DNA of 64,000 nucleotides. Origin: Alphaproteobacteria bacterium. GTDB taxonomy: Bacteria; Pseudomonadota; Alphaproteobacteria; GCA-2731375. This document shows positions 14,206 to 30,094 of the stretch, one piece after another. The DNA lies in contig CBDDPY010000002.1 of assembly GCA_965232515.1 (NCBI GenBank), positions 4,128,001-4,192,000 on the forward strand, given 5' to 3'. The position numbers and the translations under genes are program-made. The notes under the pieces were generated by a model that was not told the origin of the DNA, made no database searches, and was given only the letters and a program-made list of their open reading frames with translations. How positions within the stretch are numbered: the first letter of the stretch is position 1; each line of letters begins with the position of its first letter.

Positions 14206-15771
14206 TCAGTCGTCGTCCGACTCGTCGTCGCTCCAGTCCGCCGTCGAGACGCGGCCGCGTTCGGCGCCGGTGTCGTCATCGACACAGACCATGCTGACGT
14301 CATAGCCCCAAAGCCGGCGGGCGTGTTTCAACACCTCGTCGCGGGACTTTTCGGCCAGCGGAATGCCCTTGCGCATGGCATGACGCAGATGCAGCTGACG
14401 GTCGCGTTTGAGATCGACGTCGATGACCTGGATATCTGGATCGATGACGCCGGGATCGTAGCTGCGGGCCAGCATCTCGCGCACCTGCCGGTAGCCGTCC
14501 TCGTCGTGAATGCCGGACACCATGAGATGGCTGTCGTCGGCATCGTCGGTCAGCGCGAACAGCTTGAACTCGCGGATCAGGCGCGGGCTTAGATATTGCA
14601 GGATGAAGGATTCGTCCCGGTAATTGGCCCAGGCATCCTTCAAGGTGCCGCGCCAGTCGCCGTTGCCGGCGATCTCGGGGAACCATTCCTTGTCTTCCGG
14701 CGTCGGCTCCATGCACATGCGCTTGATGTCCTGCATCATCGAGAAGCCGAGCGCATAGGGATTCAGGCCGGAATAGCGCGGGTCGTCGAAGTCGGCCTGG
14801 AACACCACGTTGGCGTGGCTGTGCAGGATCTCCAGCATGGTGCCTTCGGTCAGCAGGCCGCGGTCGTACAGCTCGTTGGCGATGTAGTGGTGCACGAAGG
14901 TGGCGCAGCCCTCGTTCATCACCTTCGTCTGACGCTGCGGATAGAAGTACTGCGCGATCGTGCGCACGATCCGCAGCACCTCGCGCTGCCACGGCTCCAG
15001 CACCGGGCTGTTGCGCTCGATGAAGAACAGCACGTTCTCTTCCGGCAGCTTGTGCTGCCGCATGCGTTCGGCCAGCTCCTTCTCCAGCTCGGTTTCCTGC
15101 GCGCCGTCGTGCAGTTGCGGCACCGTGCGCCAGAGATCGCTGAAGGTGCGGTCCTTGTAGTCCTGGGCTTCCTGGGCCCGCGCTTTCAGCTCGCGGCTGG
15201 TCAGCTCGCGCGGCCGGCGATAGCGGAACACCGCCTGATCCATCAGCGCATGCGCGGCATCGAGCGTGTCCTCGACCGCCTCCATGCCGGCCTTTTCCTC
15301 GCAGGTGGCGATGAAAGCCTTGGCGTACTGGAAGTAGTCGAGCACGCCGTCGGCATCGGTCCACTGCCGGAAAAGGTAGTTGTTCTTGAAGAAGTGGTTG
15401 TGGCCGAAGGCGGCGTGCGCCATCACCAGCGTCTGCAGCGCCATGGTGTTCTCTTCCATGACGTAGCTGATGCAGGGATTGGAGTTGATCACGATCTCAT
15501 ACGCCAGGCCGGTATAGCCCTTGCGGTACATCTTCTCCTCGCGGGCGAAGCGCTTGCCGAAGGACCAGTGCGGGTACATCAACGGCATGCCCAGCGAGGA
15601 ATAGGCGTCCAGCATCTGCTCGGACGAGATGATTTCGATCTGATTGGGATAGACGTCGAGGCCGAGGTCGTTCAACGCCACGTCCTCGATCGCATCGAAG
15701 GCGGCCGACAGCCGTTCGAAGCTCCAATCGGGCTCCTCGAACAACGGCTGCGTCTTACGCTTGGCGCCCAT
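14206..15771 (-). CDS. ycgB: SpoVR family protein (YcgB)
   Basis: YPNQIE, HWSFGK, LAYEIVINS, HNHFFKNN, TKVMNEGCA. Confidence 0.92.
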   Translation of the reverse strand: MGAKRKTQPLFEEPDWSFERLSAAFDAIEDVALNDLGLDVYPNQIEIISSEQMLDAYSSLGMPLMYPHWSFGKRFAREEKMYRKGYTGLAYEIVINSNPCISYVMEENTMALQTLVMAHAAFGHNHFFKNNYLFRQWTDADGVLDYFQYAKAFIATCEEKAGMEAVEDTLDAAHALMDQAVFRYRRPRELTSRELKARAQEAQDYKDRTFSDLWRTVPQLHDGAQETELEKELAERMRQHKLPEENVLFFIERNSPVLEPWQREVLRIVRTIAQYFYPQRQTKVMNEGCATFVHHYIANELYDRGLLTEGTMLEILHSHANVVFQADFDDPRYSGLNPYALGFSMMQDIKRMCMEPTPEDKEWFPEIAGNGDWRGTLKDAWANYRDESFILQYLSPRLIREFKLFALTDDADDSHLMVSGIHDEDGYRQVREMLARSYDPGVIDPDIQVIDVDLKRDRQLHLRHAMRKGIPLAEKSRDEVLKHARRLWGYDVSMVCVDDDTGAERGRVSTADWSDDESDDD

Positions 15772-15809
15772 ACCTAACCTGCCTCCGTCCGTTGCCGGCG
15801 GGCCACCGC

Positions 15810-17120
15810 TCAGACCTGCTCGACCTGCTTGGCGAACAGTTCGCGGAAAGCCGGATAGATGTCACCGGGCTTGGCGATGCGCTTCATTTCGAAGTTCTGC
15901 CATTGCTCCTTCACGGTCCGATAGGCCTGCCACAAGGCCGCGCCGGACTCGGAATCGCCGAACAGGCCCATCTCGCGCTCGTCGATGATCTCGACATAGG
16001 TGAAGTACTGGCAGACCGGCATCAGCTCCTGATGCAGCAGGGCGACGCAACGTTCACTGTCGCCGGAGAAGTTCTCGCCGTCCGACGCCTGGGCGGCATA
16101 GATGTTCCAGGTGTCGGTCGGATAGCGGTCGGCGACGACCCCGGCCATCTCGCGCAACGCCGTGCTGACCACCGTGCCGCCGGTCTGCGGGCTGTAGAAG
16201 AAGGTTTCCTCGTCAACCTCGGAAGCTTCGTGCGTATGCCGGATGAAGACGACGTCGACATGCTCGTAGCGGCGCTTCAGGAACATGTGCAGCAGCACGA
16301 AGAAGCGCTTGGCCAGATCCTTTTCGCGCTGCCCCATGGAGCCGGAGACGTCCATCAGGCAGAACATGACGGCGTTGGTGTTCGGCTCGGGCCGTTGTTC
16401 GTTATAGCGGTAACGCACGTCGAACGGATCGATGAAGCCGACGACCTTGCGCCGCCGCTCGAGCCCCTCGAGCTCCTCGATCAGCGCTTTCAGCTTTTGC
16501 TCGTCCTCGTCGGTCCGGCCGGTCTTGGCCTCCAGCGCCGTAATCTGCCGGCGCAGGTCCTCGAGCGTCGAGTTCTTCGGCCGGGCCAGCGCGATTCGAC
16601 GCCCCAGGCTATTGCGCATGGTGCGCGCGACATCCAGGTTCGACGGGTTGCCGACCCGGCTGAAACCGGCACGATGACGCGTGAAAGAGACGATCTCCTT
16701 CAGCGTCGTCTTGACCAGGTTCGGCAGCTCCAGATCCTCGAAGAACAGATCCAGGAATTCCTCGCGCGACAGCGCGAACTGGAATTCGTCCTCGCCGTCG
16801 CCCTGGTCGGTGGCCTTCTTGCCGCCACCACCCTCGCCCTGTTGCGGCTTCGGGATGCGGTCGCCGGTCTCGAACTCCTTGTTGCCGGTGAACACCCGCT
16901 CGCGGATGCCGCCCTTGCTGCTGTGACTGAAGCGCGGCTCGCCGATGCCCTTGGTCGGGATCGTCACGGTCTCGCCACTGGCGACATCCGTGATCGAGCG
17001 GTCCCGCACCGACTTGTTGACGACCTCTTTGATCTGGGCGCGGGCCCGTCGGATAAAGCGCTGGCGGTTGCCCAGGCTTTTGCCCTTGGGATTTTGCCGC
17101 CGATCGATGAACTGGTGCAT
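15810..17120 (-). CDS. yeaH: YeaH/YhbH (DUF444) vWA-like protein
   Basis: IDRRQNPKGKSLGNRQRF, MDVSGSM, GGTVVS, QASDGEN. Confidence 0.92.
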   Translation of the reverse strand: MHQFIDRRQNPKGKSLGNRQRFIRRARAQIKEVVNKSVRDRSITDVASGETVTIPTKGIGEPRFSHSSKGGIRERVFTGNKEFETGDRIPKPQQGEGGGGKKATDQGDGEDEFQFALSREEFLDLFFEDLELPNLVKTTLKEIVSFTRHRAGFSRVGNPSNLDVARTMRNSLGRRIALARPKNSTLEDLRRQITALEAKTGRTDEDEQKLKALIEELEGLERRRKVVGFIDPFDVRYRYNEQRPEPNTNAVMFCLMDVSGSMGQREKDLAKRFFVLLHMFLKRRYEHVDVVFIRHTHEASEVDEETFFYSPQTGGTVVSTALREMAGVVADRYPTDTWNIYAAQASDGENFSGDSERCVALLHQELMPVCQYFTYVEIIDEREMGLFGDSESGAALWQAYRTVKEQWQNFEMKRIAKPGDIYPAFRELFAKQVEQV

Positions 17121-17135
17121 GGCCTCTGGCCGGGC

Positions 17136-19070
17136 TCAGCCCGCCTTATTCACGCGCATGTACCATTCGACGAGACGCCGGACCTGACGCTGGGTGTAGC
17201 CGCGCTCGACCAGACGCGAGACGAAGTCGTTGTGTTTCTTCTCCGTTTCGCTGTCCTTCTTCGAGCCGAAGCTGATCACCGGGAGCAGATCCTCGACCTG
17301 ACCGAACATCCGTTTCTCGATGACGTCGCGCAGCTTCTCGTAGCTGGTCCAGGACGGGTTCTTGCCGTCGTTCTGGGCCCGCGCACGCAGCACGAACTTC
17401 ACCACCTCGTTGCGGAAGTCCTTCGGATTGGCGATGCCGGCCGGCTTTTCGATTTTCGCCAGCTCGGCGTCCAGCACCTCGCGGTCGAACAGCTGACCGG
17501 TATCCGGATCCTTGTAGTCCTGCTCCTCGATCCAGGCATCGGCATAGGCGATGTAGCGGTCGAACAGGTTCTGCCCATACTCGGTATAGGATTCGAGGTA
17601 GGCCTTCTGGATCTCGTTGCCGATGAACTCGGCATACTTCGGCGCCAGGTCGGCCTTGATGAACTCGAGGTACTGGTCCTCTGTCTCGCGCGCGAACTGC
17701 TCGCGCTTGATCGCCTGCTCCAGCACATACATCAGATGCACCGGGTCGGCCGCGACCTCCTCGATGTCGTGGTTGAAGGTCTCGGACAGCACCTTGAAGG
17801 CGAACCGCGTGCTGACGCCGGTCATGCCTTCGTCGACGCCGGCCGCGTCGCGGTATTCCTGCATCGACTTGGCCTTCGGGCCAGTGTGCTTCAGGTTCTC
17901 GCCGTCATAGACCCGCATCTTGGCGTAGAGCGTCGAGTTCTCGTGCTCGCGCAGGCGCGTCAGCACGCTGAAGCGGCTCAGGATTTCGAGCGTTTCCGGC
18001 GCGCAGGGCGCGTCGCCGAGCTGACTTTCCCGCAACAGCTTGTGATAAATCTCGGCTTCCTCGGTGCCGCGCAGACAATAGGGCACCTTGACCACGGAAA
18101 TCCGGTCGAGGAAGGCCTCGTTGTTCTTGTTGCTCTTGAACTGCTGCCATTCGGCCTCATTCGAGTGCGCCAGGATGATGCCCTGGAACGGGAAGGCGCC
18201 AAAGCTCTCGGTGCCGAGATAATTGCCTTCCTGCGTGGCGGTCAGCAGCGGGTGCAGCACCTTGATCGGCGCCTTGAACATCTCGACGAATTCCAACAGT
18301 CCTTGAGTCGTTCGGTTCAGGCCGCCGGAGAAGCTGTAGGCGTCGGGGTCGTTCTGGCTGAAATGCTCGAGCTTGCGGATGTCGAGCTTGCCAACCAGGG
18401 CGGAGATGTCCTGGTTGTTTTCGTCGCCGGGTTCCGTCTTGGCGACGCCGACCTGACGCAGCTTCGACGGCATCATCTTGACGACGGCGAACTTCGAGAT
18501 ATCGCCGTCGAATTCGTCCAGGCGCTTGACCGCCCAGGGCGACATCAAGCCATTTAACCGGCGCCGCGCGATACCGTACTTGTCTTCAAGCAGATCGCCC
18601 ATGCGCGCCGGATCGAACAGACCGAGCGGCGATTCGAACACCGGGCTGACCTGATCGCCGGCTTTCAACACGTAGATCGGGTTCTTTTCCATCAGCAGCT
18701 TCAGACGCTCGGCCAGCGTCGATTTGCCGCCGCCCACGGGGCCGAGCAGATAAAGCACCTGCTTGCGCTCTTCGAGGCCCTGCGCGGCATGCTGGAAGTA
18801 GCCGACGATCCGCTCGATCGTCTGCTCCATGCCGTAGAAGCCGCTGAATGCGGGATAGCGCTTGATGGTTCTATTGAGGAAAATGCGGCCCAATCGCGAG
18901 TCCGAACTGGTGTCGATCAGTTCAGGTTCGCCGATGGCGTCGATCATGCGTTCCGCCGCCGAGGCGTACATCAGGGGGTGGTCGCGGCACCCGAGCAGAT
19001 AGTCGTGCAGACTCATCTCCTCGGAGGCTTCACGCTGATAATTTTCCGAATATGCTTCGAAAACGTTCAT
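17136..19070 (-). CDS. prkA: PrkA/YeaG family AAA+ serine protein kinase
   Basis: GPVGGGKS, EPGDENNQDIS, EFVEMFKAPIKVLHPLLTATQE. Confidence 0.95.
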   Translation of the reverse strand: MNVFEAYSENYQREASEEMSLHDYLLGCRDHPLMYASAAERMIDAIGEPELIDTSSDSRLGRIFLNRTIKRYPAFSGFYGMEQTIERIVGYFQHAAQGLEERKQVLYLLGPVGGGKSTLAERLKLLMEKNPIYVLKAGDQVSPVFESPLGLFDPARMGDLLEDKYGIARRRLNGLMSPWAVKRLDEFDGDISKFAVVKMMPSKLRQVGVAKTEPGDENNQDISALVGKLDIRKLEHFSQNDPDAYSFSGGLNRTTQGLLEFVEMFKAPIKVLHPLLTATQEGNYLGTESFGAFPFQGIILAHSNEAEWQQFKSNKNNEAFLDRISVVKVPYCLRGTEEAEIYHKLLRESQLGDAPCAPETLEILSRFSVLTRLREHENSTLYAKMRVYDGENLKHTGPKAKSMQEYRDAAGVDEGMTGVSTRFAFKVLSETFNHDIEEVAADPVHLMYVLEQAIKREQFARETEDQYLEFIKADLAPKYAEFIGNEIQKAYLESYTEYGQNLFDRYIAYADAWIEEQDYKDPDTGQLFDREVLDAELAKIEKPAGIANPKDFRNEVVKFVLRARAQNDGKNPSWTSYEKLRDVIEKRMFGQVEDLLPVISFGSKKDSETEKKHNDFVSRLVERGYTQRQVRRLVEWYMRVNKAG

Positions 19071-19707
19071 GACCGTCCTCCATCAATGGGTGAACGGGTC
19101 GATCGCCAAACTACGGCCGCGCAAAGCATTGCAAATATGTCCTCTTCAGCCTCTCGTTCCTCGCTCTTCCTCCCCCGGTGTCCCAAGTTGTGCATTTGCC
19201 AATTCTTGGCTTATGTCACCCTGCTTTTGTTTGACCCTTCTTAAATGTAGCGTCTCATTGGAACACGGCTACCCTGGTCCATTCAAATTTTCATCACGCA
19301 TTAGCGGTCGGTTGTGCGCCAACCAAGGCGGCGCGCCAATCGCAACCGAAAGATGCAGAGAAAGATTTGACGCACGAAATCAACGGGTTGATCCGCCGGT
19401 CTTGAGGCGGCGTCGAACGCCGGATTGACTCGACCGTCGCGGCGACGTGCAGGCGTCGGCGTGTAATCAATTCGTCATCATTGCAAGCATGCAACACACA
19501 ATCGCGGTGATTCGCCGTCTGGCGCTGGGTTTCGTTGGCGCGCGACGAATTTTCTGCTGCAACGATCTTGGCTGTTTGGGGATGCGAACCGGCGGTGATA
19601 TCTCGCCGCGCGCCGTCATCGGCATCGAGCCGCGGCGCGTCGTGTCGAGATATGTCGTCTGCGTATCGCATTTTTTCCCTAGCCAATGAAGTGTCGTGCC
19701 GGAGTGC

Positions 19708-19723
19708 TTAAATAACGGTTAAC
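19708..19723. promoter_or_regulatory. CtrA-type binding site
   Basis: TTAA-ATAACGG-TTAAC is an exact TTAA-N7-TTAA(C) match in an intergenic region. Confidence 0.55.
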
Positions 19724-19899
19724 CATGTCACTAAATTCGAGAATATGATCGCCAACGCGTAGATGTGATGCGTCAACCGCCGTCCTAACAATTACGCGGC
19801 ACTGTCGATGTCGATCCGAAAAAGTCGACATCGATCGCAAGTGAAGCAGGACAATTTGGGAGGTCCGGGCGGCGATCAGATGGCGGGGATTTGCGTTCG

Positions 19900-21216
19900 A
19901 TGAAACATCAGCGCCCGGAAGATCTGCGGCCCGAGATCGCGCTGCTGCTGGCCTGCGCCCGAAGTACCTACGACGACGACGCCAGGGCGCGTATTGCCGG
20001 CCTGTTGCGAACCCCGCCGGACTGGACCTACCTGGTGCAAACCGCGATCGATCACGGCGTTTCGCCGCTGTTGTGTCGGGCCATGCTGCAGGTATTTCCC
20101 GATGCCGTGCCTGATGATGTGCGGGCGGCCGCAGGAACGCATCTCGACGATAATGACGCCGACAACCGTTCGCGTACATCTGAGCTGTTGCGCATCCTTG
20201 CGGCGCTGGCGCAACGGAACATTCCGGCCATTCCGTTCAAAGGCCCGGCCGTGGCCGAACGGATCTACGGCGACTTGTCGCTGCGGCGGTTTCGCGATCT
20301 GGACTTCTTGCTTCGCGAATCCGACATCGACGCCGCGCTCGACGTGCTGCGGCAACTGGATTATCCGACCGAGACCGGCTTCGTCTCGGCGCGCGATCCA
20401 GCCTTTCGCCTGACTCCGGCGCAAACCCAAGCGTTCCGCGACTATGCCGGCGAGTACATCTTCTACAAACGCGACCAAAGCGTGGTGATCGAGCCGCACT
20501 GGCATTTCGCGCCCGCCACCTTGAGCGTCGACATCGACTATACGGCGTTGTGGCGCCGGACGTTCGATGCCGACCTGGCCGGCGCAACAGTCCGCACGCT
20601 GACGCCCGAAGACGAATTGCTGGTGCTTTGCGTCCACGGCTCGAAGGAAATCTGGACGCGCCTGCAATGGATCTGTGACGTCGCCGAACTGATCCGCGCC
20701 TATCCCGGCCTCAATTGGGTCGCAACGCTGCAGCGGGCCGAACGGCAGGGCTGCGAGCGCATGCTGTTGCTGGGACTGTCGCTGGCGCATCGGTTGCTGC
20801 AGGCGCCGTTGCCGCCGACGGTGCGCAAGCTGACCGAGCAAGCGGCCGTAAACGTGCTGGTGCGGGATGTCGAACGCGCGCTGTTCGCCGACCGCGACGC
20901 GCCGACGTCGATCTATTCGGTGTCACTGTTCCGGGTTCGGATGCGCGAAAGACTGCGCGATCGTTGGCGTTACGTCTGGCGCACGATCACCACGCCGCGC
21001 ATTCAGCATTTCGAGATGGTCGCCTTGCCGGATGCGTTGTTCTTCGGCTACGTGCCGGTCAAGCTCGTACACGACTATGTGCTGCTGCCGCTCTGGCTGC
21101 TGGCCAAGCGGGTGCGCGCGGCCATCCTGTCGACCGCAAATCGACCCGTGCAGGAACCGGTGGCCGACCGGACGCCGCCGCCGCGTGACGGCCGACGTCC
21201 GGTTAAACCAACCTAA
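19900..21216 (+). CDS. Nucleotidyltransferase family protein (NTP_transf_5-like)
   Basis: FKGPAVAERIYGDLSLRRFRDLDFLL (KG...R..DxD), IEPHW, LCVHGSKEIWTRLQWICDV. Confidence 0.88.
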   Translation: MKHQRPEDLRPEIALLLACARSTYDDDARARIAGLLRTPPDWTYLVQTAIDHGVSPLLCRAMLQVFPDAVPDDVRAAAGTHLDDNDADNRSRTSELLRILAALAQRNIPAIPFKGPAVAERIYGDLSLRRFRDLDFLLRESDIDAALDVLRQLDYPTETGFVSARDPAFRLTPAQTQAFRDYAGEYIFYKRDQSVVIEPHWHFAPATLSVDIDYTALWRRTFDADLAGATVRTLTPEDELLVLCVHGSKEIWTRLQWICDVAELIRAYPGLNWVATLQRAERQGCERMLLLGLSLAHRLLQAPLPPTVRKLTEQAAVNVLVRDVERALFADRDAPTSIYSVSLFRVRMRERLRDRWRYVWRTITTPRIQHFEMVALPDALFFGYVPVKLVHDYVLLPLWLLAKRVRAAILSTANRPVQEPVADRTPPPRDGRRPVKPT

Positions 21217-21223
21217 CGCGGCG

Positions 21224-21403
21224 TCAGACCTGACCGTTTTGGCCGTACGGCACCGTGGCCGTGCCGGCCGCGGCCTGCTTGGCCTTGGCCGAAAGCAGCA
21301 ACGCGACAGCCGGTGCCGTCGCCGCGGCGACGCCTGCCTTTTTCAGGAATTTCCGACGGTCGCTGTCATGCGACGTCTCGGGGGTCTTTTTGCTGTCCGA
21401 CAT
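21224..21403 (-). CDS. 59-aa peptide with twin-arginine leader; putative RiPP-like precursor
   Basis: MSDSKKTPETSHDSDRRKFLKKAGVAAATAPAVALLLSAKAKQAAAGTATVPYGQNGQV; strong RBS GAGGAG; dedicated sigma-54 promoter. Confidence 0.8.
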   Translation of the reverse strand: MSDSKKTPETSHDSDRRKFLKKAGVAAATAPAVALLLSAKAKQAAAGTATVPYGQNGQV

Positions 21404-21532
21404 AACGTTCTCCTCACCATTACTTTTGTTGTTTTGGCTTCTCGGCAATACGCGCCAAAAAAACGCTGCACGATCCGATTGCAAGGTCCAGCACAGCTCC
21501 AAACCAAACCCAACAACATCAAGTACTGAAAC

Positions 21533-21549
21533 AGCAATTTCCGTGCCAA
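21533..21549 (-). promoter_or_regulatory. Sigma-54 (-24/-12) promoter of the small peptide gene
   Basis: Minus strand reads TTGGCACGGAAATTGCT, matching TGGCAC-N5-TTGCW. Confidence 0.8.
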
Positions 21550-21600
21550 TACAATTAACCTCAAAAATGCCGGATTTCTGGATTTTGGCAAAGGTGCGAC

Positions 21601-21636
21601 TGTAAAGAATTCCGACAATCGTCGGTATTCTTTACA
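21601..21636. promoter_or_regulatory. Inverted repeat; putative twin enhancer (UAS) for a sigma-54 activator
   Basis: TGTAAAGAATTCCGAC-AATC-GTCGGTATTCTTTACA: 16-bp arms, one mismatch, 52-87 bp upstream of the -24 element. Confidence 0.55.
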
Positions 21637-23179
21637 TGGCGTCGCGATTCAGATGTTCAGCAAGGCGAAGCGCGAGCGCCACCAACGTCAGCGTCGGATT
21701 TGAGCAGCCTGCGGTCGGAAACACGGCACTGCCCGCGACATAAAGGTTGCCGATACCATGCACGCGGCAGTTCGCATCGACCACGCCCTGCCGCGGGTCA
21801 TCATGCATTCGCAAGGTGCCGATGTGGTGGCCGCTGTTGACCGAGCGGCGCAACCAGGTTTCGCTGCTGACATCGACCTGCACCCGACCCGTGCCGGTTC
21901 GGCCCGCCTCGAGGCCGATAAGTTCGTGGGTCCGGCGAATGCTCCGGACCTCACGCTCGCCCAAACGCCAATCGACCCGCGCCTGGCGCAGGCCGAGGCT
22001 GTCTCGGGTATCGGCAAGCGTGACACGGTTGTCCGGGTTCGGCGCCGGCTCGACGCGGCTGTGGAAGTTAAGGAAACCGACGGGCGGGCGGCCGCCGACG
22101 ACTTTGCGGAACAACGCGCGCCCGACACCGTCAATATCGCCGGCGACATTGCGGACATGCGCGCCCAGATCTTCGGGCAGGCTGCCGTCGCCAACGGCGT
22201 CGACGATCGATTTCAACGACGCCACGCCGGCGGAGCGCTGGCCGACGGCCTGCAGCACGACGGTGATGTTGAGCAGCTCCTCCCGGCGTTGTACGCCGGC
22301 CGGCAGGATCAAGATGCCGTGGAACCTGCGATCGACGTCGTAGGCGCGCACGGCCATATCCGGGTCGCTCGGCGCCATGCGGCTTGAGGCCAGCAGCCGA
22401 TGGTCGGTGAAGAAGCGCCCGACGAGATCGCCGCCGTTGCCGAGACCGCCACGCCGGCGCCGGTCCGACAACAGCATCAACCGCGCGTTCTCGATGGCGC
22501 CACAGGCCAGGACGTAGCGATGGCCGGTCACCCGGAAACCGATGCCGGAAAGCGTGGCGCACCGCAGTCCGGTCGCCCGCGCGGCCGTGTCATCGGTCTC
22601 GATCTCGACGACGTTGGCGTGCAGATAGACCGTCACGTTGTCGGCGCGAACCAGATCTTCCCGATAGGCCTGGCCGAAGCGCGTCGGCGGACCCCGCCGA
22701 TAGATCCCGGTCTGAATTCGCGCCGGATCGAACGGCAACGGCGCATCGTCATCCTGGCCGGGCCAGGAGGAATTGCCGTAATCGAATGAACCGGTCTCGC
22801 AGATCGCTTCGGCGCGCCGATAGTAGGGAACCAGCGCGTCGCGGCCGAACGGCCAACCGCTATGCGGCACCCAGGGACGCGCCTCGAAATCGATCTCGTC
22901 AAAGGGACGGCAATTGCCTTCCCAATGGTTGGTGCTGCCGCCGAAGTAGCGCAGGCGGGTGGCGTCCAGCGGATCGTATCTGTCATCGACGACCTCGCCG
23001 GCATAGAGTGCCTGGGTCTCGGCCGCGAACTCGAAGCCGCCGCTTTCCAGCACGACCACGCGATGCCGGGTGCCGGCCAGTTCACGGGCGATACTGATCC
23101 CGGCCGCGCCCGCGCCGACGACAACGATATCGGCATCGATGATGGTGCCCGCCGGCAGGCTGCGCGCGTCGAGGATCAA
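21632..23179 (-). CDS. GMC-family FAD-dependent oxidoreductase
   Basis: VVVGAGAAG, FGGSTNHW, LACGAIENARL, HHIGTLRM, GSAVFP..G.SNPTLT; TTG start abuts the upstream stop. Confidence 0.9.
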   Translation of the reverse strand: MILDARSLPAGTIIDADIVVVGAGAAGISIARELAGTRHRVVVLESGGFEFAAETQALYAGEVVDDRYDPLDATRLRYFGGSTNHWEGNCRPFDEIDFEARPWVPHSGWPFGRDALVPYYRRAEAICETGSFDYGNSSWPGQDDDAPLPFDPARIQTGIYRRGPPTRFGQAYREDLVRADNVTVYLHANVVEIETDDTAARATGLRCATLSGIGFRVTGHRYVLACGAIENARLMLLSDRRRRGGLGNGGDLVGRFFTDHRLLASSRMAPSDPDMAVRAYDVDRRFHGILILPAGVQRREELLNITVVLQAVGQRSAGVASLKSIVDAVGDGSLPEDLGAHVRNVAGDIDGVGRALFRKVVGGRPPVGFLNFHSRVEPAPNPDNRVTLADTRDSLGLRQARVDWRLGEREVRSIRRTHELIGLEAGRTGTGRVQVDVSSETWLRRSVNSGHHIGTLRMHDDPRQGVVDANCRVHGIGNLYVAGSAVFPTAGCSNPTLTLVALALRLAEHLNRDAM

Positions 23180-24397
23180 CTACTCGAGCGCCCGGATCAG
23201 CGCAACGGCGTCGTCGAGAGACGACATCGGCAGCGCATAACACTCGACGCCGGCGGCCCAATCGACCATCGCCTTGACGCGCTCGACGTTCAGCGGCGCC
23301 GGGATCGCCAAGCACTCGTCCATCATCCGGTGCAGGGCGGCCACCTTGCCGATCGGTTCCAACGCCGTTTCGGCATCGGCCGCATAGCGCGGGAAGATCA
23401 GGCGACGCACGGGCTGCGCCGCATTTGACGTGGGCCGCATGTCGGCCGGCGGCGACAGGTATCGCACGACCTTGCCGTCCCCGCGGTGGTGCGTTTTCAA
23501 GTCGGCGAGTTCGGGATAATAGGGCGTCATCAGATCCCAGCCCTCGCGCTTGAAGCACATCGACAGCGGCACGGGCACGGCCTGGAACGTGGATTCCGAC
23601 AGCAGCGCGACTTCGTCGGAGAAGTACTTGAACCCTGCGCGGCAGAGCGCGGCCGTCAGCGACGACTTGCCGCTGCCGGGCGCGGCGGGCAGCAGCGTGC
23701 AGGCCCGACCGTCACTGACCACGCCGGCGTGGATATTCAAAAAGTAGTCGGCGCCGCGCAGTGACAGCTGCCAAATCAAGCCCTTCACGATCGGCGCCAG
23801 TTGGTCGTAACGCGCGCAGCGGCAAAACGGTGATTGGTCGAGATAGATCAGATGCCCGTCGCGGGTCGCCACGATGTCGACCAAGCTGTCGGCCGGCGCA
23901 GTCGCAACGGCGAGATGCGCGATCGCCGTATGGACCCATTCGATCTGCGCCGGCTCGTTGCAACGCACCTCGACGCGATGATCCAGCAGCGCATAGTGCC
24001 GGCGCTCGGCGCTTGGCACGGCCGCGAACGGCGGCAGGCCGCCATCCGCTTCGAGCGCCGGCGGCGCGGGCACTTCCGGCTCGCGTGGATTGGCGCCCTG
24101 CAACAGACCCAGCGTGCGCCACTGCGCCAGGATATCGGCCACATGCCGTTCGGCCTCGCTGTCGGCGAAGCCGAACGTCGCCGACATCGCCGTCGCGATC
24201 GCCGCCGGTGAGACGCCTTCCTCCAACTGGCACCAAACATAGGTCGCCGTCGTGTTGAGCGCGTAGATCTCCTGCGCCGCGTCGGCGTAGAGCAGCCCTT
24301 CATCACCGAGGATGAAGAGATGCACGTCGTCGCCTGGTCGAACCGCCGCGGTCACGGGCACGCTCCCGCCATTTCTTGGTTTTTCGCTCCGGCCCAA
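23180..24397 (-). CDS. PqqD/RRE domain fused to HPr-kinase-related P-loop kinase
   Basis: N-term LLYADAAQEIYALNTTATYVWCQLEEG...VADILAQWRTLGLL (PqqD-like); C-term IHAGVV...PAAPGSGKSSLTAAL...FSDEVALL; start uncertain. Confidence 0.85.
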   Translation of the reverse strand: MGRSEKPRNGGSVPVTAAVRPGDDVHLFILGDEGLLYADAAQEIYALNTTATYVWCQLEEGVSPAAIATAMSATFGFADSEAERHVADILAQWRTLGLLQGANPREPEVPAPPALEADGGLPPFAAVPSAERRHYALLDHRVEVRCNEPAQIEWVHTAIAHLAVATAPADSLVDIVATRDGHLIYLDQSPFCRCARYDQLAPIVKGLIWQLSLRGADYFLNIHAGVVSDGRACTLLPAAPGSGKSSLTAALCRAGFKYFSDEVALLSESTFQAVPVPLSMCFKREGWDLMTPYYPELADLKTHHRGDGKVVRYLSPPADMRPTSNAAQPVRRLIFPRYAADAETALEPIGKVAALHRMMDECLAIPAPLNVERVKAMVDWAAGVECYALPMSSLDDAVALIRALE

Positions 24398-24572
24398 CCT
24401 AATAGGCCGGAGAAGCTTGTAAATAGGCTAACGGCCGAGCCATTCGGCGCGGTGGCGACAAACGCAATCGTGATTTGGTCCGGCGCGACACGATCGGAAA
24501 AGATATCGCTCAGGCGGGGCCGGGCGAAGGTGGCGGCGGCATGTCCGTTGCGACCGTAGATGGGACCTGATC

Positions 24573-24908
24573 ATGAGAGCTTGGAAATTCTCGCCTGTCA
24601 TCCTCATGGCCCTTGCCCCGTTCGGCGACGGCGCGCTCGCGACCGGCGACCGCGATGCGCGGGCCTGTCTCGACGCCAGCCGATCGCACGTCGAGCGGCT
24701 GCCAGTACAAAGCGGCGACGTCACCGGCGTCACCATTGTCCCGCGCTTGGATCTGCATCGCGAGGGCCCGTATCTGGTCGGCTACGAAGCCTATGTCAGG
24801 CTGCAATCGTGCACCGGCTCACTGGTCCTTAACCTGAACGAGGACTGCAGCTTCCGCGACGCCTACACCCGTGGCGCCTGCAAGATCCAGGGCCTGCCGG
24901 ATTACTGA
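24573..24908 (+). CDS. Small exported protein with four cysteines
   Basis: Signal-like N-terminus, 4 Cys, fills the gap between the kinase and nudC. Confidence 0.65.
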   Translation: MRAWKFSPVILMALAPFGDGALATGDRDARACLDASRSHVERLPVQSGDVTGVTIVPRLDLHREGPYLVGYEAYVRLQSCTGSLVLNLNEDCSFRDAYTRGACKIQGLPDY

Positions 24909-25819
24909 GACGGCGGGTCCAGCCAGTCCAGGACCAGGCGGCGGCTGATCGAGTCGGCCGGCGGCAGAATCAGATCGCCGGCGTCGACGGCGGGGCCGAT
25001 CTCGTCGCGATGATACCAATCCGCCTCGGCGATCTCCTCGCCGTCGACCTTGATGTTGGTGGTCAGCGCCGTCGCGGTAAAGCCGACCATCAGCGACGAG
25101 GGAAACGGCCAGGGCTGAGAGGAATGATAACGGACCTCGCCAACCTCGATTCCGGTCTCCTCCGCCACTTCGCGCCTGACGGCATTCTCCAGACTCTCGC
25201 CGGGCTCGACGAAGCCGGCGATCGTCGAGCGACGCGGCCTCGGCCAGATCCGCCGACGCGCCAGCAGGCACCGGTCGCCGTCCGTCACCAGCATGATCAC
25301 CGCGGGGTCGGTGCGCGGAAAATGCAGCTTGCCGCATGTCTTGTCCTGGCAACGGCGCACATGGCCGGCGCGCTCAGCCCTCGTCGCCGTGCCGCAGGCG
25401 CCGCAAAAGGCGTGCGTGGCATGCCAATGCGCCAGACCGCGGGCCAATGCCAACAGAGCAGCGTCGCGGTGCGCCATGTCCATGGCGGCATCGCGCAGAT
25501 CGACCAGACGGCCGTCCGCCAGCAATCCGTTTTCGGCGTCATCGATGTCCGACAGGTCGATGGCGAAATGCGCCGTCTCGCCGTCCACGCCGAGCAGCAT
25601 CGGCACGCGCTTCTCCAACAGCGGCGCGACGGTTTTCAGCGCGAGGCCGATCGGCCGGGGCCGCGTCTCCGCGCTGATGAAATTCTTCAGCCGCCAAAGC
25701 GGGTAAAACCGGCTGCCGGGATCCGACAGCTTGGCGTTGACCCAGTCCGGATCCTCGCGGGCCGCGGCGGCGCGGTCCCAGGCCGGGTCGACGTAATGAT
25801 TGTCCCGAGGACCCGGCAT
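24902..25819 (-). CDS. nudC: NAD(+) diphosphatase NudC
   Basis: Zn ribbon FCGACG, FPRTDPAVI, Nudix box AGFVEPGESLENAVRREVAEETG, SQPWPFPSSLM. Confidence 0.93.
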   Translation of the reverse strand: MPGPRDNHYVDPAWDRAAAAREDPDWVNAKLSDPGSRFYPLWRLKNFISAETRPRPIGLALKTVAPLLEKRVPMLLGVDGETAHFAIDLSDIDDAENGLLADGRLVDLRDAAMDMAHRDAALLALARGLAHWHATHAFCGACGTATRAERAGHVRRCQDKTCGKLHFPRTDPAVIMLVTDGDRCLLARRRIWPRPRRSTIAGFVEPGESLENAVRREVAEETGIEVGEVRYHSSQPWPFPSSLMVGFTATALTTNIKVDGEEIAEADWYHRDEIGPAVDAGDLILPPADSISRRLVLDWLDPPSQ

Positions 25820-25820
25820 C

Positions 25821-26450
25821 TCAGGACGCATCCGGGTTGATGCCGGCGGCCATCGCCATGCGCACCAGGTGCGAGAGGCTCTTGGCCTGGGTCTTCTCCA
25901 TCACGCGGGCACGGTGGTTCTCCACGGTGCGCGGGCTGATGCCGAGCTCGTAGGCGATGATCTTGTTCGGCTGACCGATCACCAACTTTTCCAGGACCTC
26001 CCGTTCGCGCGGCGTCAGCTGCTGCAGACGCGCCGCGACTTCATCCGAACGCCGGTCGCTGGCAACGGCAGCCGTTGGCGGCGGCGCCGTGAGCGCGGCC
26101 TCGATCCGCTCCAGGATGGTCTCGCCGTTGAACGGCTTTTCGATGAAGTCGGCGGCGCCGGCCTTCATCGCCTTGACCGCCAGCGGCACATCGCCGTGGC
26201 CGGTGATGATCAGCACGGGCGGCGGGCGGTCGATCTTCTGCAGGCGCTGCAGGATGGAGATGCCATCCATGTCGGGCAGGCGGACGTCAAGCACGATACA
26301 GGCGGCATCCGACGGATCGAAGCCGGCGAAAAACGCGGCGCCCGAGGCAAAGGTGGCGATCCGCCGACCGATACCTTCGATCAGCAGCGTCAGCGAGTGC
26401 CGGATCGATTGATCGTCGTCGACGACATAGATCTTGTCGGCGTCCGACAT
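25821..26450 (-). CDS. FixJ-like response regulator
   Basis: IYVVDDD, ITGHGDVPLAVKAMKAGAADFIEKP, LTPREREV...NKIIAYELGISPRTVENHR. Confidence 0.92.
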   Translation of the reverse strand: MSDADKIYVVDDDQSIRHSLTLLIEGIGRRIATFASGAAFFAGFDPSDAACIVLDVRLPDMDGISILQRLQKIDRPPPVLIITGHGDVPLAVKAMKAGAADFIEKPFNGETILERIEAALTAPPPTAAVASDRRSDEVAARLQQLTPREREVLEKLVIGQPNKIIAYELGISPRTVENHRARVMEKTQAKSLSHLVRMAMAAGINPDAS

Positions 26451-26582
26451 GTCTGTTCCCTCCCGGCGGCTCGCACTGCTCCGACCCCCATTCGTCATCG
26501 TCACCGACGGCGCTGCCCCTAGCCCGTCTGGGTAAGATTACGCAGGTATTATCCCCGATTCATCCCGTTAATCTGAATCGCT

Positions 26583-26725
26583 ATTTACTTCCTTGGGCGC
26601 CGGGCATTCGGACCTTTCCCTCCCGCCCGGTTGCCCATGTTGCGTAGAACGGGTTCCAGAATTGCGACCCCCAGTTCGGTAGCCCGTGGTTGCGGCGGTT
26701 CCTTGGAACCGCCGCTTCTTTTTTT
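26583..26725 (+). ncRNA. Candidate trans-acting sRNA (three hairpins, C-rich loops, intrinsic terminator)
   Basis: Hairpin 26594-26637 with loop ...CCTTTCCCTCCC, hairpin ~26649-26687, terminator; no plus-strand CDS upstream. Confidence 0.55.
26692..26725 (+). terminator. Rho-independent terminator
   Basis: GCGGCGGTTC-CTTG-GAACCGCCGC followed by TTCTTTTTTT. Confidence 0.85.
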
Positions 26726-26859
26726 GACCACGCCATGCCGCCGCGCCTGATGCAGGCTATTCGCCCAAATAGACATACGAAATATGTCGACAAAATCGTC
26801 GGCTTATTGCTGTTATGCTCAAAGTGACAACGTTAGACACAATAATAAGGGGGATTGCG

Positions 26860-27324
26860 GTGCGGTTTTTCGCGGTTCTTTTCATCGCCGTTACGATGCT
26901 TGCCGGTCCTGTTGTCATTGGCACGGCCAAAGCACAGGACGCAACCATCGGGCACATCAAGTCGGTCAAGGGCGAGGCCAAGGCGATGCGCGCCGGCGGC
27001 GACGTGGCGCTCGCCGTCGGCGATCCGGTCTATCGCGAAGATGTGCTGGAAACCAGCACCGGCGGCGCGCTCGGCGTCATCTTTCTCGACAACACGATCT
27101 TGTCGCTCGGGCCGCGGACGACGGTCACGCTGCGCGATTACGAATTCGAGCCGGCGACGGAAAAGATCTCGTTTCTGGCCAGGATCACGCGCGGCACCCT
27201 GCTGTACGTGTCCGGCGTGATCGCCAAGCTGTCCCCCAGCGCGGTCTCGATCGAAACGCCGGTCGCCACGGTCGCCGTCCGCGGCACCCGCTTCCTGGCG
27301 CAGGTCAAGGACGACGGCGGCTGA
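26860..27324 (+). CDS. Exported stand-alone FecR-domain protein
   Basis: Signal peptide (...AKA), IGHIKSVKGEA, FLDNTILSLGP, IETPVATVAVRGTRF; start uncertain (GTG 26860 or ATG 26815). Confidence 0.85.
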   Translation: MRFFAVLFIAVTMLAGPVVIGTAKAQDATIGHIKSVKGEAKAMRAGGDVALAVGDPVYREDVLETSTGGALGVIFLDNTILSLGPRTTVTLRDYEFEPATEKISFLARITRGTLLYVSGVIAKLSPSAVSIETPVATVAVRGTRFLAQVKDDGG

Positions 27325-27384
27325 CGCCGCGATCGCCGACAAATCCGTCTATCGCAGGTTATTGAATTGGGGGATGCGTATCCG

Positions 27385-28008
27385 ATGAGCCGACATATCC
27401 GGACTCCCGCACGGCCGCTCGGCACCCTGTTGCTGATGTTGTGCCTGCTACCGGCCTGCAGCCGGCTGAACGACAACCTTTTCGTGCTGCTGGAAGACGC
27501 CGACGGCCAGGTCGGCTCGATCGAGGTCTCGAACGACAGGGGCAGTCAGACCATCGACCAGACCGGCCAGGCGGTCGCCCTGCGCAGCGCCAACAGCACG
27601 CCGAGCGACGTATTCACCGTATCGCAGGACGATATCGACGAACGCTTCCGCGACGCGCTCGCCGCCGAGCCTGAAAAGCCCGTCAACTTCGTGCTCTACT
27701 TCAAAACCGGCAGCACCGACCTGCGGTCTGAATCGGCCGAACAATTGCCCCAGGTGCTGCAGGTCATCGCCAACCGGACGGCGCCGATCGTCGCCGTGGT
27801 CGGCCACACCGACACCGCCGGTTCGGCCCGCATCAACGCCGCGCTCGCGCTGGACAGGGCGCAGGAAGTGGCGAAGATCCTGACCGGCATCGGCATTCCC
27901 GCCGACCGCATCGAGATCACCTCGCACGGCGAGAACAATCTGCTGATCCCCACCGACGACAACGTCGCCGAGCCGCGCAACCGGCGGGTCGAGATTACGG
28001 TTCGCTAG
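27385..28008 (+). CDS. OmpA-family (peptidoglycan-binding) lipoprotein
   Basis: Lipobox LLPAC, LYFKTGS, VGHTDTAGS..IN..LALDRA, EPRNRRVEI. Confidence 0.9.
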   Translation: MSRHIRTPARPLGTLLLMLCLLPACSRLNDNLFVLLEDADGQVGSIEVSNDRGSQTIDQTGQAVALRSANSTPSDVFTVSQDDIDERFRDALAAEPEKPVNFVLYFKTGSTDLRSESAEQLPQVLQVIANRTAPIVAVVGHTDTAGSARINAALALDRAQEVAKILTGIGIPADRIEITSHGENNLLIPTDDNVAEPRNRRVEITVR

Positions 28009-30094
28009 CGCCACCGGCCGGCACCGTAAAGCGGAACTCGGTGCCGCCGCCGGGCGCGTCGGTTGCCCACAGATGGCCGTCATGGGCCTCGACGATCGAG
28101 CGGCAGATCGCCAGGCCCAGGCCTAATCCTTTCGACTTTGTGGTGACGAACGGCTCGAACAGGCGCTCCTTCAACTCGTCGTCGAGCCCGCTGCCGGTGT
28201 CGCCGACCGCGACCTCGATGGCGCCATCGGGCGTCGCGGCGGTCGCGAGGCTGATACGCCGGACCGGCGCGCCGTCCATGGCCTGAACCGCGTTGCGGAT
28301 CAGGTTGACCACGACCTGCTGGATCTGAATGCGGTTGACCATCGCCGGCGGCAGGCCCTCGGCCAGGTCGCTGATGAACGCGACATCCCGCGACATGGGC
28401 TCCGACAGCGCCAGCTCGGCGGCCTCCATGACCACGGCATTGACGTCTTCCGGATGGCGCGAGACCTCACCCTCATCGACGAGCTCGCGCAGGCCGCGGA
28501 TGATGCCGGTCGCGCGTTCGGCATCGCCGCTGATCTGGCGCAGGGTATCACCGACCGGCCCCGATGACTGGCCGTTCTGCCGCTTCAGGGCGTTCCGGGC
28601 GGCGTCGGCATAAACCATGATCGAGGTCAGCGGCTGGTTCAGCTCGTGCGCGATGGCCGACGAGAGCTGGCCCATGGCGCTTTCCCGCGCGGCGTTCTGC
28701 AGCTCGGTTTGCAGCTGCCGCAGCTCGACCTGGCGCGCCCGGTCGCGCAGCGCGGCATTGAGCGCCAGCGCCTGCCGCCGCCGCTCCTCGCCGATCAGCG
28801 CGCTGCTCACCAGCGTCAGGAAGATCAGCAGCGCGGTGGCGACGGGGTAGGTCGCGTCCAGCAGCAGGCGGAGCTCGGCATAGCTGAACCAGGACGCCGC
28901 CAGCGTGCCGGAAACCAGCGTCAGGAACAGCAGGATGGACCAGCGCGCCTTCAGCAACGGCTGGCATATGACCAACAGCAGGCCGATGGCGATAGCGGCC
29001 AGCAGCTCCAACGCCCCGGCGAAGTTCGCCGGCCGGTGCAGCGCTTGGCCTGAGAGGATGTTTTCGACCGCCTGGGCGTGGATCTCGACGCCGGCCATCG
29101 AGGCGCCGACCGGCGTCGCCGCGATATCCAACAGACCTGTCGACGTGGTGCCGATCAGCACGATCTTGTCCGCGAACCGCGCCGGCGCCACCGCGCCGCG
29201 CAGCACCGCCGCCGCCGACACGAAGCGGTCGGCGTCATGCCGCGAAAAGTTGATCCAAAGCCGGCCCCGCTGATCGGTCGGCACCGAAAGCCGCCCGACG
29301 CCGACGCCGCTGACGCCGGCGACATCGGCGTCGACCGTCAGCAGGTTCTCGCCCAGCCGCACGCGCAGCACCTCGAGCGCGAAGGCCGGCCGCATGGTCT
29401 CGCCAACCAGCGACAGCAACGGCAGCCGGCGCAGCACGCCGTCGCGTTCCAGGTCCAGGCTGACGATGCCGCGGCCGGTCGCCGCGTCGGCCAGTTCGTC
29501 GATGCTGCGCAGCAGCCCGGCATAGGCCGGCACGAACGGCGTCGGATCGCCTCGCAGGATAACCGGCGTCGCCGGCAGATCGACGGTCTCCTCCGATGCC
29601 GGACCGCCCGGTCGGACGGCGATGCCCATCACCACCGGCGCGCGTCGGAAACTCTCGGCCAGAACGGCATCGTTCGACGGCAGGGCCGCGAGCCGCTGCC
29701 GCGTGGCGGCATCAAGGCCGGGCAGGTTCTTGACGAGACTCTGCGGCGACAGCCGGTCGCGCTCCGAGAACAGGATATCGATGCCGATGACGCTGGCGCC
29801 CTGCGTCGCGATGGTCGATATCAGCTCGGCCATGACACCGCGCGACCATGGCCACTGCCCCAATTCGGCAAGACTGGCGTCGTCGATGTCGACGATGACC
29901 ACGGGCCGCTGGTCGACATGGCGCGGTTGGATTTCCTGATAGAAATCGAAGAACCGGACCCGGGCGCCCTCGATCGGCGCCGGATCGACAATGCGCAGCC
30001 CCGTCAGAGCGATCAGCAACAGCAGCGCGACCCAACGCGGTCGCCACCAAGACGTGGCGACGGGTGTCAGATCGTCAGGTTCGTCAGACGCCAT
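27995..30094 (-). CDS. CHASE2-domain sensor histidine kinase
   Basis: VVIVDIDDASLAELGQWPWSR, DGVLRR, GVEIHAQ (CHASE2), 3 TM, AHELNQPL, NLIRNA, FVTTK..GLGLGL. Confidence 0.92.
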   Translation of the reverse strand: MASDEPDDLTPVATSWWRPRWVALLLLIALTGLRIVDPAPIEGARVRFFDFYQEIQPRHVDQRPVVIVDIDDASLAELGQWPWSRGVMAELISTIATQGASVIGIDILFSERDRLSPQSLVKNLPGLDAATRQRLAALPSNDAVLAESFRRAPVVMGIAVRPGGPASEETVDLPATPVILRGDPTPFVPAYAGLLRSIDELADAATGRGIVSLDLERDGVLRRLPLLSLVGETMRPAFALEVLRVRLGENLLTVDADVAGVSGVGVGRLSVPTDQRGRLWINFSRHDADRFVSAAAVLRGAVAPARFADKIVLIGTTSTGLLDIAATPVGASMAGVEIHAQAVENILSGQALHRPANFAGALELLAAIAIGLLLVICQPLLKARWSILLFLTLVSGTLAASWFSYAELRLLLDATYPVATALLIFLTLVSSALIGEERRRQALALNAALRDRARQVELRQLQTELQNAARESAMGQLSSAIAHELNQPLTSIMVYADAARNALKRQNGQSSGPVGDTLRQISGDAERATGIIRGLRELVDEGEVSRHPEDVNAVVMEAAELALSEPMSRDVAFISDLAEGLPPAMVNRIQIQQVVVNLIRNAVQAMDGAPVRRISLATAATPDGAIEVAVGDTGSGLDDELKERLFEPFVTTKSKGLGLGLAICRSIVEAHDGHLWATDAPGGGTEFRFTVPAGGASEP

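Follow-up and report, generated by a model that had tools for sequence, protein, structure and literature searches.

A short open reading frame (ORF) in an alphaproteobacterial genome raises the question of why a signal for twin-arginine translocation (the Tat route) should be followed by a passenger of only 13 residues. The ORF lies at positions 21224-21403 of the window, by which we mean the whole stretch of 64,000 nucleotides that was analysed (contig CBDDPY010000002.1 of assembly GCA_965232515.1, positions 4,128,001 to 4,192,000). We find that it belongs to a family of conserved mini-proteins, and that genes of this family are tied to an enzyme in which a PqqD-type recognition element (RRE) for the leaders of peptides that are made by the ribosome and modified after translation (RiPPs) is fused to an HprK-like kinase. 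We regard it as probable that the 59-residue product is the precursor of a linear, kinase-modified peptide, in which the Tat signal doubles as the leader that recruits the enzymes and the Tat system and signal peptidase I take the place of an exporter and a protease.

Translation of the minus strand gives 59 residues followed by a stop: MSDSKKTPETSHDSDRRKFLKKAGVAAATAPAVALLLSAKAKQAAAGTATVPYGQNGQV. The elements named in the original prediction, namely a twin-arginine consensus, an Ala-rich h-region, KAK, AAA and a 13-residue tail, are all present in this translation. The features of the gene are as follows.

21224-21403, minus strand: precursor gene of 59 codons plus stop (stop at 21224-21226), with an ATG start, from the translation
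21410-21415, minus strand: ribosome-binding site GAGGAG, six bases 5' of the ATG, read from the sequence
21341-21361, minus strand: twin-arginine motif, residues 15-21, from the translation
21287-21337, minus strand: h-region, residues 23-39, Ala-rich with a central Pro, holding a near-invariant T-A-P-A-V-A-L-L-L-S-A block
21266-21286, minus strand: basic c-region, residues 40-46, with an AxA-type site at its end, from the translation
21227-21265, minus strand: variable tail and putative core, residues 47-59 (13 residues), with Thr48 and Tyr53 kept in close relatives
21404-21631, minus strand: spacer of 228 bases between the oxidoreductase gene described below and the peptide gene, with a lower G+C content of about 0.52-0.55

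The motif follows a polar n-region and fits the S/T-R-R-x-F-L-K-type consensus with Asp in first place, the h-region is weakly hydrophobic, the Pro-containing stretch of the original prediction occupies residues 29-36, and KAK and AAA fall at residues 40-42 and 44-46. The peptide narrowly passes the NCBIfam Tat-signal model TIGR01409, with 17.6 bits against a cut-off of 16.7, and tatC is present in the host genome. Pfam and NCBIfam hold no dedicated model for the family, for which this generic Tat model and sub-threshold matches to TIGR02811 and TIGR04117 were the only hits. Cleavage sites were assigned with our own rule, which takes whichever A-x-A-like site is best in the 16 residues that follow the h-region, and not with a trained predictor; the 13-residue length of the passenger rests on this rule and on the invariance of Ala46 in a 13-member family alignment (A1), and an alternative predicted cut after Ala41 would leave a passenger of 18 residues.

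The G+C content at third codon positions is 0.80 in the peptide gene, against 0.78-0.83 in three neighbouring genes, and an identical protein is already on record as a called, unnamed protein. Because the exact protein is on record and the family comprises 985 protein clusters, the 59-codon ORF is more than a chance reading frame and is a real gene. Contigs from RNA libraries (three runs of one study) cover parts of positions 19500-25000 at a depth of about 2.5-6, including 20820-21284 and 21409-21623; they do not span the whole small ORF and may contain DNA carry-over, and we give them no weight for or against transcription. Their one difference within the ORF, C>T at 21251, is synonymous by our own reading. 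The spacer upstream may provide room for a promoter or 5' untranslated region belonging to the peptide gene. A promoter and terminator scan gave nothing useful on the minus strand upstream of the ORF, its sole promoter-like site lying on the opposite strand, and an Rfam scan of 19500-25000 gave no match.

To place the peptide among its relatives we used both a word-based search, which returned eight relatives of 56-91 residues, and the profile of the 13 members of A1, scored against 1.84 billion representative sequences. The profile matched the 985 clusters at E<=0.001, 147 of them at E<=1e-10. In the best 150 of these 985 matches, which include four rows of the query alignment, 149 proteins are 49-156 residues long, and the remaining one is an unrelated 1360-residue repeat protein. 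The family is therefore one of conserved mini-proteins, and the gene is not the 5' remnant of a longer Tat substrate, an outcome that the original prediction had named as fatal to its proposal, because its relatives are equally short.

Conservation within the family is concentrated in the signal. We parsed 149 members, the 150 sequences shorter than 400 residues less one that did not fit the pattern, and found the twin arginine as RR in 147 and as KR in two, with F-L-K after it and a basic c-region also kept across the family. In 146 of the 149, a Pro follows the first Arg at a distance of exactly 15 residues. Conservation is 85-99% in the P-A-V-A-L-L-L block and 66-99% at the positions around the Pro (T-A before it, A-V-A-L-L-L after it), and goes far beyond the needs of a signal peptide. 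An AxA site was found in 136 of the 149. The tails, in contrast to the leaders, are hypervariable, and their median length is 18 residues (quartiles 13 and 26, range 6-108). The same division is seen at closer range, where six close relatives are identical to the window peptide at 31-32 of 32 positions in residues 15-46, at 9-14 of 14 positions in residues 1-14, and at only 6-11 of 13-16 tail positions. Among leader copies from two genomes (three from G275 and one from G107; genomes are given by our own labels, G000 being that of the window), the proportion of non-synonymous differences (pN) was lower than that of synonymous differences (pS) in 6/6 pairs, with ratios of about 0.17-0.47. These four sequences are not independent and bear on the family rather than directly on the window copy; by this measure the leaders are under purifying selection in the relatives.

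Paralogues often lie in tandem, with near-identical leaders and differing tails. There are three tandem genes in G275, two in G226, six in G128 (including three tandem Cys-rich copies), four in G031 and three divergent tandem genes in G160, and the cluster of protein P0093 holds seven on one 4.3-Mb contig. Paralogues with a conserved leader and a variable core, for which a search of the genome had been suggested, thus exist in other genomes and not in the host of the window, where the gene is a single copy and the next matches (E >= 0.028) are the signals of ordinary long proteins.

Several variants of the tail deserve mention. P0093 and P0170-P0175 share one sequence across the leader and roughly the first nine residues of the tail, and then diverge into different Cys-rich ends. 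The three tandem copies in G128 (L039:9430-10488) have Cys-rich tails with several C-x-x-C-like pairs and a weak, sub-threshold similarity to TIGR04117, a family of radical-SAM targets; no obvious maturase was seen among their scanned neighbours. In three metagenomic proteins of 136-149 residues (P0054, P0057 and P0115), a Tat-like leader and short tail are followed by a Peptidase_S74 domain (E 6e-6 to 1.5e-8), a self-cleaving intramolecular chaperone and an odd fusion partner for a signal-peptide mini-protein. A second leader subtype occurs in G188, G301, G297, G292, G274 and G427 (loci L021, L022, L025, L027, L028 and L044), with Cys-Gly-Lys-Phe after the RR motif, Pro-Pro in the h-region and tails rich in Gly, Asn and His. 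An N-N-G-F-G-N-G-G-G-D-G-like block is common to the tails of G188, G297, G274 and G427; G301 and G292 lack this block and have Gly/His-rich tails. Five of these six adjoin RRE-kinase fusions, some of them also nucleotidyltransferases; G188 has no fusion gene.

The immediate neighbourhood of the peptide gene contains three enzymes.

23180-24397, minus strand: fusion of a PqqD-type RRE (about residues 20-100) and an HprK-like P-loop kinase (about residues 187-404, Walker A motif GSGKS), 405 residues
21632-23179, minus strand: GMC-family oxidoreductase dependent on flavin adenine dinucleotide (FAD), 515 residues (Pfam GMC_oxred_C, 2.6e-22)
19891-21216, plus strand: PF14907 (NTP_transf_5) nucleotidyltransferase (Pfam 1.8e-57), convergent with the peptide gene, the two stop codons being 7 bases apart

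The fusion and GMC genes abut, and lie upstream of the peptide gene on the same strand. Both the peptide profile and the fusion protein were run against one set of 401 genomes of the class. The peptide profile matched 15 of the 401 at E<=1e-5, of which two (G185 and G311) proved on inspection to be ordinary long binding proteins, leaving 13. A near-full-length fusion was found in 12 (G000, G100, G128, G160, G212, G274, G275, G280, G292 with two genes, G297, G301 and G427). The peptide was present at the same threshold in 10 of the 12 genomes with the fusion, compared with three of the 389 without it (G107, where it lies on a 3.2-kb contig, G188 and G226). In G160, three divergent peptide genes with weak profile scores (E 0.08-1.5) lie just upstream of the kinase; in G280, on a 5.5-kb contig, no peptide gene was found. 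With G160 included, both are found in 11 genomes, and in 10 of these a peptide gene and the fusion gene are within 2 kb of each other; in G128 the two are on different contigs. The related genomes in this count are not independent, but they span at least nine families; a match in G270 to the kinase domain only bears on none of these results. Taken together, these data show that the peptide gene is genetically tied to the RRE-containing enzyme.

In a maximum-likelihood tree the fusion proteins group by three leader subtypes with the fewest possible changes; none of 200 shuffles was as low, and support for the groups was 69-100%. Such a match is expected from co-inheritance as well as from co-evolution, and co-inheritance alone could produce it. 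In locus searches, the single kinase protein returned one irrelevant locus and P0093 none, and the alignment A1 returned seven, two of which were ordinary Tat-signal binding proteins of Trueperaceae. We note two further occurrences of HprK-like genes. In G033 and G142 (L060:345-902 and L063:655-936), stand-alone HprK-like kinase genes with no fused RRE have small ORFs upstream of them whose starts are Tat-like and whose tails contain Cys, and the theme of the Tat leader may extend to such unfused kinase cassettes. The genome of the window also carries, outside the window (G000:C2:6232588-6233226), a second HprK-like gene that consists of the kinase domain only (E 2.3e-19 to the fusion in the window).

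The fusion protein matches Pfam PqqD at 2.3e-9 and TIGR04352 at 7.3e-30, the latter below the cut-off of that model. A profile of 12 fusion proteins (alignment A2) matched the leader-binding proteins of lasso peptide clusters, TbiB1 (1.2e-9) and TfuB1 (1e-8), over positions 15-95, and HPr kinase (2.9e-5) over the P-loop region. The AlphaFold2 model, with a mean predicted local distance difference test score (pLDDT) of 90.4, has three strands followed by three helices at residues 25-95, and this domain superimposes on TbiB1, which was solved with its leader peptide (5v1v_A), with a template modelling (TM) score of 0.91 normalised to the target, at 2.0 Å over 86 columns; the TM-score on 6jx3_B was 0.89. 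In the model, the RRE domain is thus structurally closest to the B1 leader-binding proteins of lasso pathways, and the C-terminal part has the fold of phosphoenolpyruvate carboxykinase and HPr kinase. Prediction of a complex between the full fusion (A2) and the peptide (A1) scored 0.22 against a mark of 0.32; controls were not run, and we draw no verdict from it. Within NCBIfam, the fusion is a distant relative of both the kinase (TIGR04352) and the PqqD chaperone (TIGR04353) of the 'HPr-rel-A system', scoring 104 bits where the cut-off is 200 and 19.7 bits where it is 35, and it differs from that system in that the two parts are joined in one protein.

The other two enzymes accompany the peptide at some of the related loci. 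Homologues of the nucleotidyltransferase flank the kinase or the peptide in G275, G100, G031 and L076, and more distant ones do so in G274 and G301. Its model has a pLDDT of 64.9, and its weak best matches (E about 1e-3) are ANT(2'')-Ia, LnuA and MenT-type enzymes; the fold may therefore be nearest to O-nucleotidyltransferases, which transfer a nucleotide onto a hydroxyl. Close GMC homologues (49-55% identity) adjoin a peptide gene in G031 and the kinase gene in G128, and in G100 a different GMC enzyme precedes the kinase; the GMC oxidoreductase is an accessory member of the cluster. Two observations on the nucleotidyltransferase stand apart from this. Residues from about 381 to 416 form a long, highly conserved hydrophobic and aromatic helix at the C-terminus, which could in the model be an element for membrane association, and in a Rhodospirillales metagenome-assembled genome (L076:5293-6437) the homologue next to the kinase and peptide is matched in two tblastn pieces in different frames, which may reflect a frameshift or an assembly error.

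Consideration of these proteins alongside published pathways gives insight into what the locus might make. The closest published analogue, which the original prediction does not mention, is the pathway for linear polyphosphorylated peptides (LPPs) of Bacillota, LppA/K/B/S/D/N (Popov et al., 2026; PMC13381572). Both combine an RRE, an HprK-like kinase and an uncharacterised NTP transferase without a lasso cyclase, and both have one to three precursor genes whose N-terminus is conserved and whose C-terminus is highly variable. LPPs are polyphosphorylated at Ser3 of the core, their transferase showed no activity in the heterologous host, and the leader peptidase LppS is an archaeal-type homologue of signal peptidase I (PMC13381572); the proposed target, a hydroxyl residue at the start of the core, and the signal-peptidase-I chemistry of leader removal would likewise be shared. 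The differences are considerable. The RRE is fused to the kinase here and discrete in LPP clusters, a GMC oxidoreductase is present, the host is an alphaproteobacterium, and in place of a Tat signal the LPP leader carries the motif YxxPxVLxHQxIxFETxxS, of which only the P-x-V part is common to both (PMC13381572). Neither a peptidase like LppS nor an MsbA-like pump like LppD was seen among the ORFs scanned within about 10 kb. The authors describe LPPs as confined to Bacillota, and their main text uses none of the terms 'Tat', 'twin-arginine', 'signal peptide' or 'Proteobacteria' (PMC13381572).

The same types of enzyme serve the phosphorylated and phosphoglycosylated lasso peptides paeninodin, pseudomycoidin and Bsf, with a K kinase, a B1 RRE and a PF14907-type N protein (PMC8498205, PMC10368454). 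There, HprK-like kinases phosphorylate linear lasso precursors, and in pseudomycoidin a PF14907-type enzyme adds hexoses to the phosphate (PMC8498205); Ser3 of the core is the site in BsfA as in LppA (PMC10368454, PMC13381572), and BsfK is strongly stimulated by the B1 RRE (PMC10368454). The leader here is instead a Tat signal, and no ABC exporter was seen in the scanned ORFs of the locus. We rejected the reading of the product as a lasso peptide, as the B2 leader protease (PF13471) has no match in the whole genome, which is 96% complete. Among the scanned ORFs near the locus, to which the search for it was confined, there was no Asn-synthetase-like macrolactam cyclase. Given the lack of a B2 protease in the genome and of a cyclase in the scanned locus, the product should be linear. 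By analogy, the locus is best read as a proteobacterial relative of the phosphorylated linear and lasso peptide pathways.

The original prediction held that the locus has neither a dedicated protease nor an exporter, and this agrees with our scan, in which no peptidase or exporter families were found among the ORFs within about 10 kb, four of which matched no Pfam family; the ORFs scanned at the G275 and G100 loci likewise gave none. Its idea of a dual-purpose leader is partly supported, through the conserved signal, the varying tail and the genetic tie to an RRE enzyme, while binding by the RRE, modification of the tail, export by Tat and cleavage by signal peptidase are steps that we infer. 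In the cytoplasm, the PqqD-type RRE of the kinase fusion would bind the conserved Pro-centred block in the h-region, and the HprK-like kinase domain would phosphorylate a residue with a hydroxyl group early in the tail, which would be Thr48 or Tyr53 in this peptide and lie in the Ser-Gly or Tyr-Gly of most relatives. The PF14907 nucleotidyltransferase and, at this locus, the GMC oxidoreductase would elaborate the phosphate or the attached group. The modified peptide would exit through the general Tat system, and signal peptidase I would cut after the AxA site to give a modified peptide of roughly 13 residues in the periplasm or beyond, so that general machinery would stand in for the leader peptidase and the ABC exporter that the related pathways of Bacillota keep for this purpose.

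Two features of the sequences bear on the recognition and modification steps. In its form, the Pro block matches the P-x-[L/V] half of (Y/W)xxPx[L/V/I/F/A], the motif to which the RREs of lasso and LPP pathways bind, and we propose it as a candidate RRE-binding element. The loose likeness of TAPAVALL to (Y/W)xxPxL that had been pointed out in the original prediction gains weight here, since a true Y-x-A-P-A-[V/M] occupies the corresponding position of the h-region in the divergent leaders beside the G160 and G212 kinases. In the tails, Ser-Gly or Tyr-Gly occurs within the first 15 residues of 90 of the 149 members, compared with 33.0 +/- 4.4 in 2000 within-tail shuffles (maximum 51), most commonly at position +4.

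A number of observations weigh against a leader that recruits the kinase and a tail that it modifies. None of the 149 type-1 leaders has an aromatic residue at the aromatic position of (Y/W)xxP, where 146 of them have Ala, Val, Leu or Ile. The tail in the window has no Ser anywhere, with Thr at +2 and +4 and Tyr at +7, as against Ser at core position 3 in LPPs and the family peak of [S/Y]-G at +4. At the Ser3 site BsfK accepts Thr but not Tyr (PMC10368454), and LppK accepts neither (PMC13381572). The search profile held the tail columns of 13 sequences and could slightly favour P-x-G-like tails, which bears on the enrichment. In some relatives only 3-9 residues follow the predicted cut, which is very small for a product. 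Finally, the orphan genes of G226 and G188, which have no fusion, and of G128, which lie far from it, indicate that the link is not obligatory.

The last two points could also be explained if the peptide were exported or membrane-anchored and not modified by its neighbours, acting as a signal, as a bacteriocin-like peptide or as a signal-anchor mini-protein with a functional helix, with the kinase and nucleotidyltransferase acting elsewhere. That the hydrophobic segment is the most conserved part of the family, and that tails can be so short, fit this explanation, as do the copies without a fusion in G226 and G188. The co-occurrence and adjacency of the two genes are difficult to reconcile with it, however, as are the peptide-leader-binding domain of the adjoining enzyme and the enrichment of a hydroxyl-Gly motif near the start of the tail; the conserved AxA site argues for cleavage over anchoring. 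We consider this explanation unlikely.

It is also conceivable that the leader recruits the enzymes and does not function as a signal for Tat, its Tat appearance being a by-product of recognition by the RRE, with a product that stays in the cytoplasm or leaves by the general secretion (Sec) pathway or an unlinked exporter. The leaders bound by RREs in the lasso and LPP pathways centre on a Pro-containing hydrophobic motif, and the Pro block here is conserved far beyond the needs of export, both as this explanation would have it. A leader freed from export would nonetheless be surprising in a family that keeps the whole Tat architecture (RR in 147/149, F-L-K, a basic c-region and AxA in 136/149) and passes the TIGR01409 cut-off, at loci where no other exporter was found among the scanned ORFs. 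We judge it distinctly unlikely, and return to a Tat signal that also serves as the enzyme-recruiting leader as the preferred reading.

The GMC oxidoreductase suggests a third explanation, in which the peptide is a minimal Tat 'hitch-hiker' partner that carries this enzyme across the membrane. By eye, no N-terminal signal is present on the GMC enzyme, nor on the kinase fusion or the nucleotidyltransferase. The nearest solved relatives of the GMC enzyme are sugar dehydrogenases and oxidases, matched in the C-terminal third alone, among them the catalytic subunit of FAD glucose dehydrogenase and the large subunit of fructose dehydrogenase (E 5e-25). Glucose dehydrogenase is exported with a small subunit that bears a Tat signal of 47 residues (PMC6719666), and such small subunits of FAD-dependent dehydrogenases resemble the peptide in having a long Tat signal (about 46-47 residues) next to a signal-less GMC gene (PMC6719666); the GMC gene lies directly upstream of the peptide gene here, and beside it in G031. 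The known hitch-hiker, however, has a folded, helical mature part of 121 residues (PMC6719666), compared with 13 hypervariable residues here, and the GMC link is confined to some relatives, most peptide-kinase loci (G275, L076, G301, G297, G292, G274, G427, G212 and G160) having no GMC gene. No gene for a cytochrome subunit and no Cys cluster were seen. This explanation is therefore very improbable. That the ORF is non-functional, whether by chance or as the decayed 5' end of a longer Tat substrate, is suggested by its shortness, and deserves almost no credence given the ribosome-binding site, the gene-like third-position G+C, the hundreds of equally short relatives, the purifying selection on leaders in relatives, and the single long protein among the best 150 matches.

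If the peptide is indeed a Tat-routed precursor, a likely substrate has been found for the pair of RRE-kinase and nucleotidyltransferase, for which the locus offers no other candidate, and linear phosphorylated peptides extend from Bacillota to Proteobacteria. No case of a Tat-type RiPP leader was found in the open-access literature searched, supplements excluded, and as far as that search shows this would be the first natural precursor of a modified peptide to be routed through Tat. A leader that is at once export signal and enzyme handle would be a compact design without a dedicated protease or pump, and might be of use where modified peptides are to be engineered for secretion. The Tat pathway tolerates bulky cargo. 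The authors of work on bufferins argue that bulky modifications would suit Sec poorly (PMC11626156), and this argument from the size of the Sec pore makes a Tat route attractive. Bufferins and other MNIO-modified peptides likewise have a general-secretion signal instead of a classical leader, and rely on housekeeping export and cleavage (PMC11626156, PMC12452194). They differ in that their signals are of the Sec type, their enzymes are MNIO and DUF2063 proteins, their chemistry is that of Cys, and the signal peptide is dispensable for modification (PMC11626156, PMC12452194), whereas the Tat-type signal here seems to contain the element that is recognised.

More tentatively, and with rather more doubt than confidence, we suggest that the hydrophobic core of the Tat signal has been taken over as the RRE-binding motif, and that the RRE acts as a proofreading chaperone which would mask the export signal until the tail is phosphorylated and decorated, and then hand the peptide over to Tat. 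On this suggestion the family, which would run to about a thousand clusters at 50% identity, would form a large and so far undescribed class of modified peptides that Alphaproteobacteria route through Tat, with many types of core (Ser/Tyr-Gly, Cys-rich, Gly/His-rich and self-cleaving S74 fusions) and without the need for a dedicated protease or exporter.

Farther from the peptide gene, the window encodes NudC, a FixJ-type regulator, a CHASE2 histidine kinase, an OmpA-family protein, an MscS channel, a hybrid histidine kinase and a PrkA/DUF444/SpoVR trio. The trio (PrkA, a YeaH-like DUF444 protein and SpoVR), at 14206-19070 on the minus strand, appears unrelated to the peptide cluster. The FixJ-type response regulator and the CHASE2 histidine kinase, at 25821-30094, lie just upstream of NudC and the cluster, and are possible regulators of it.

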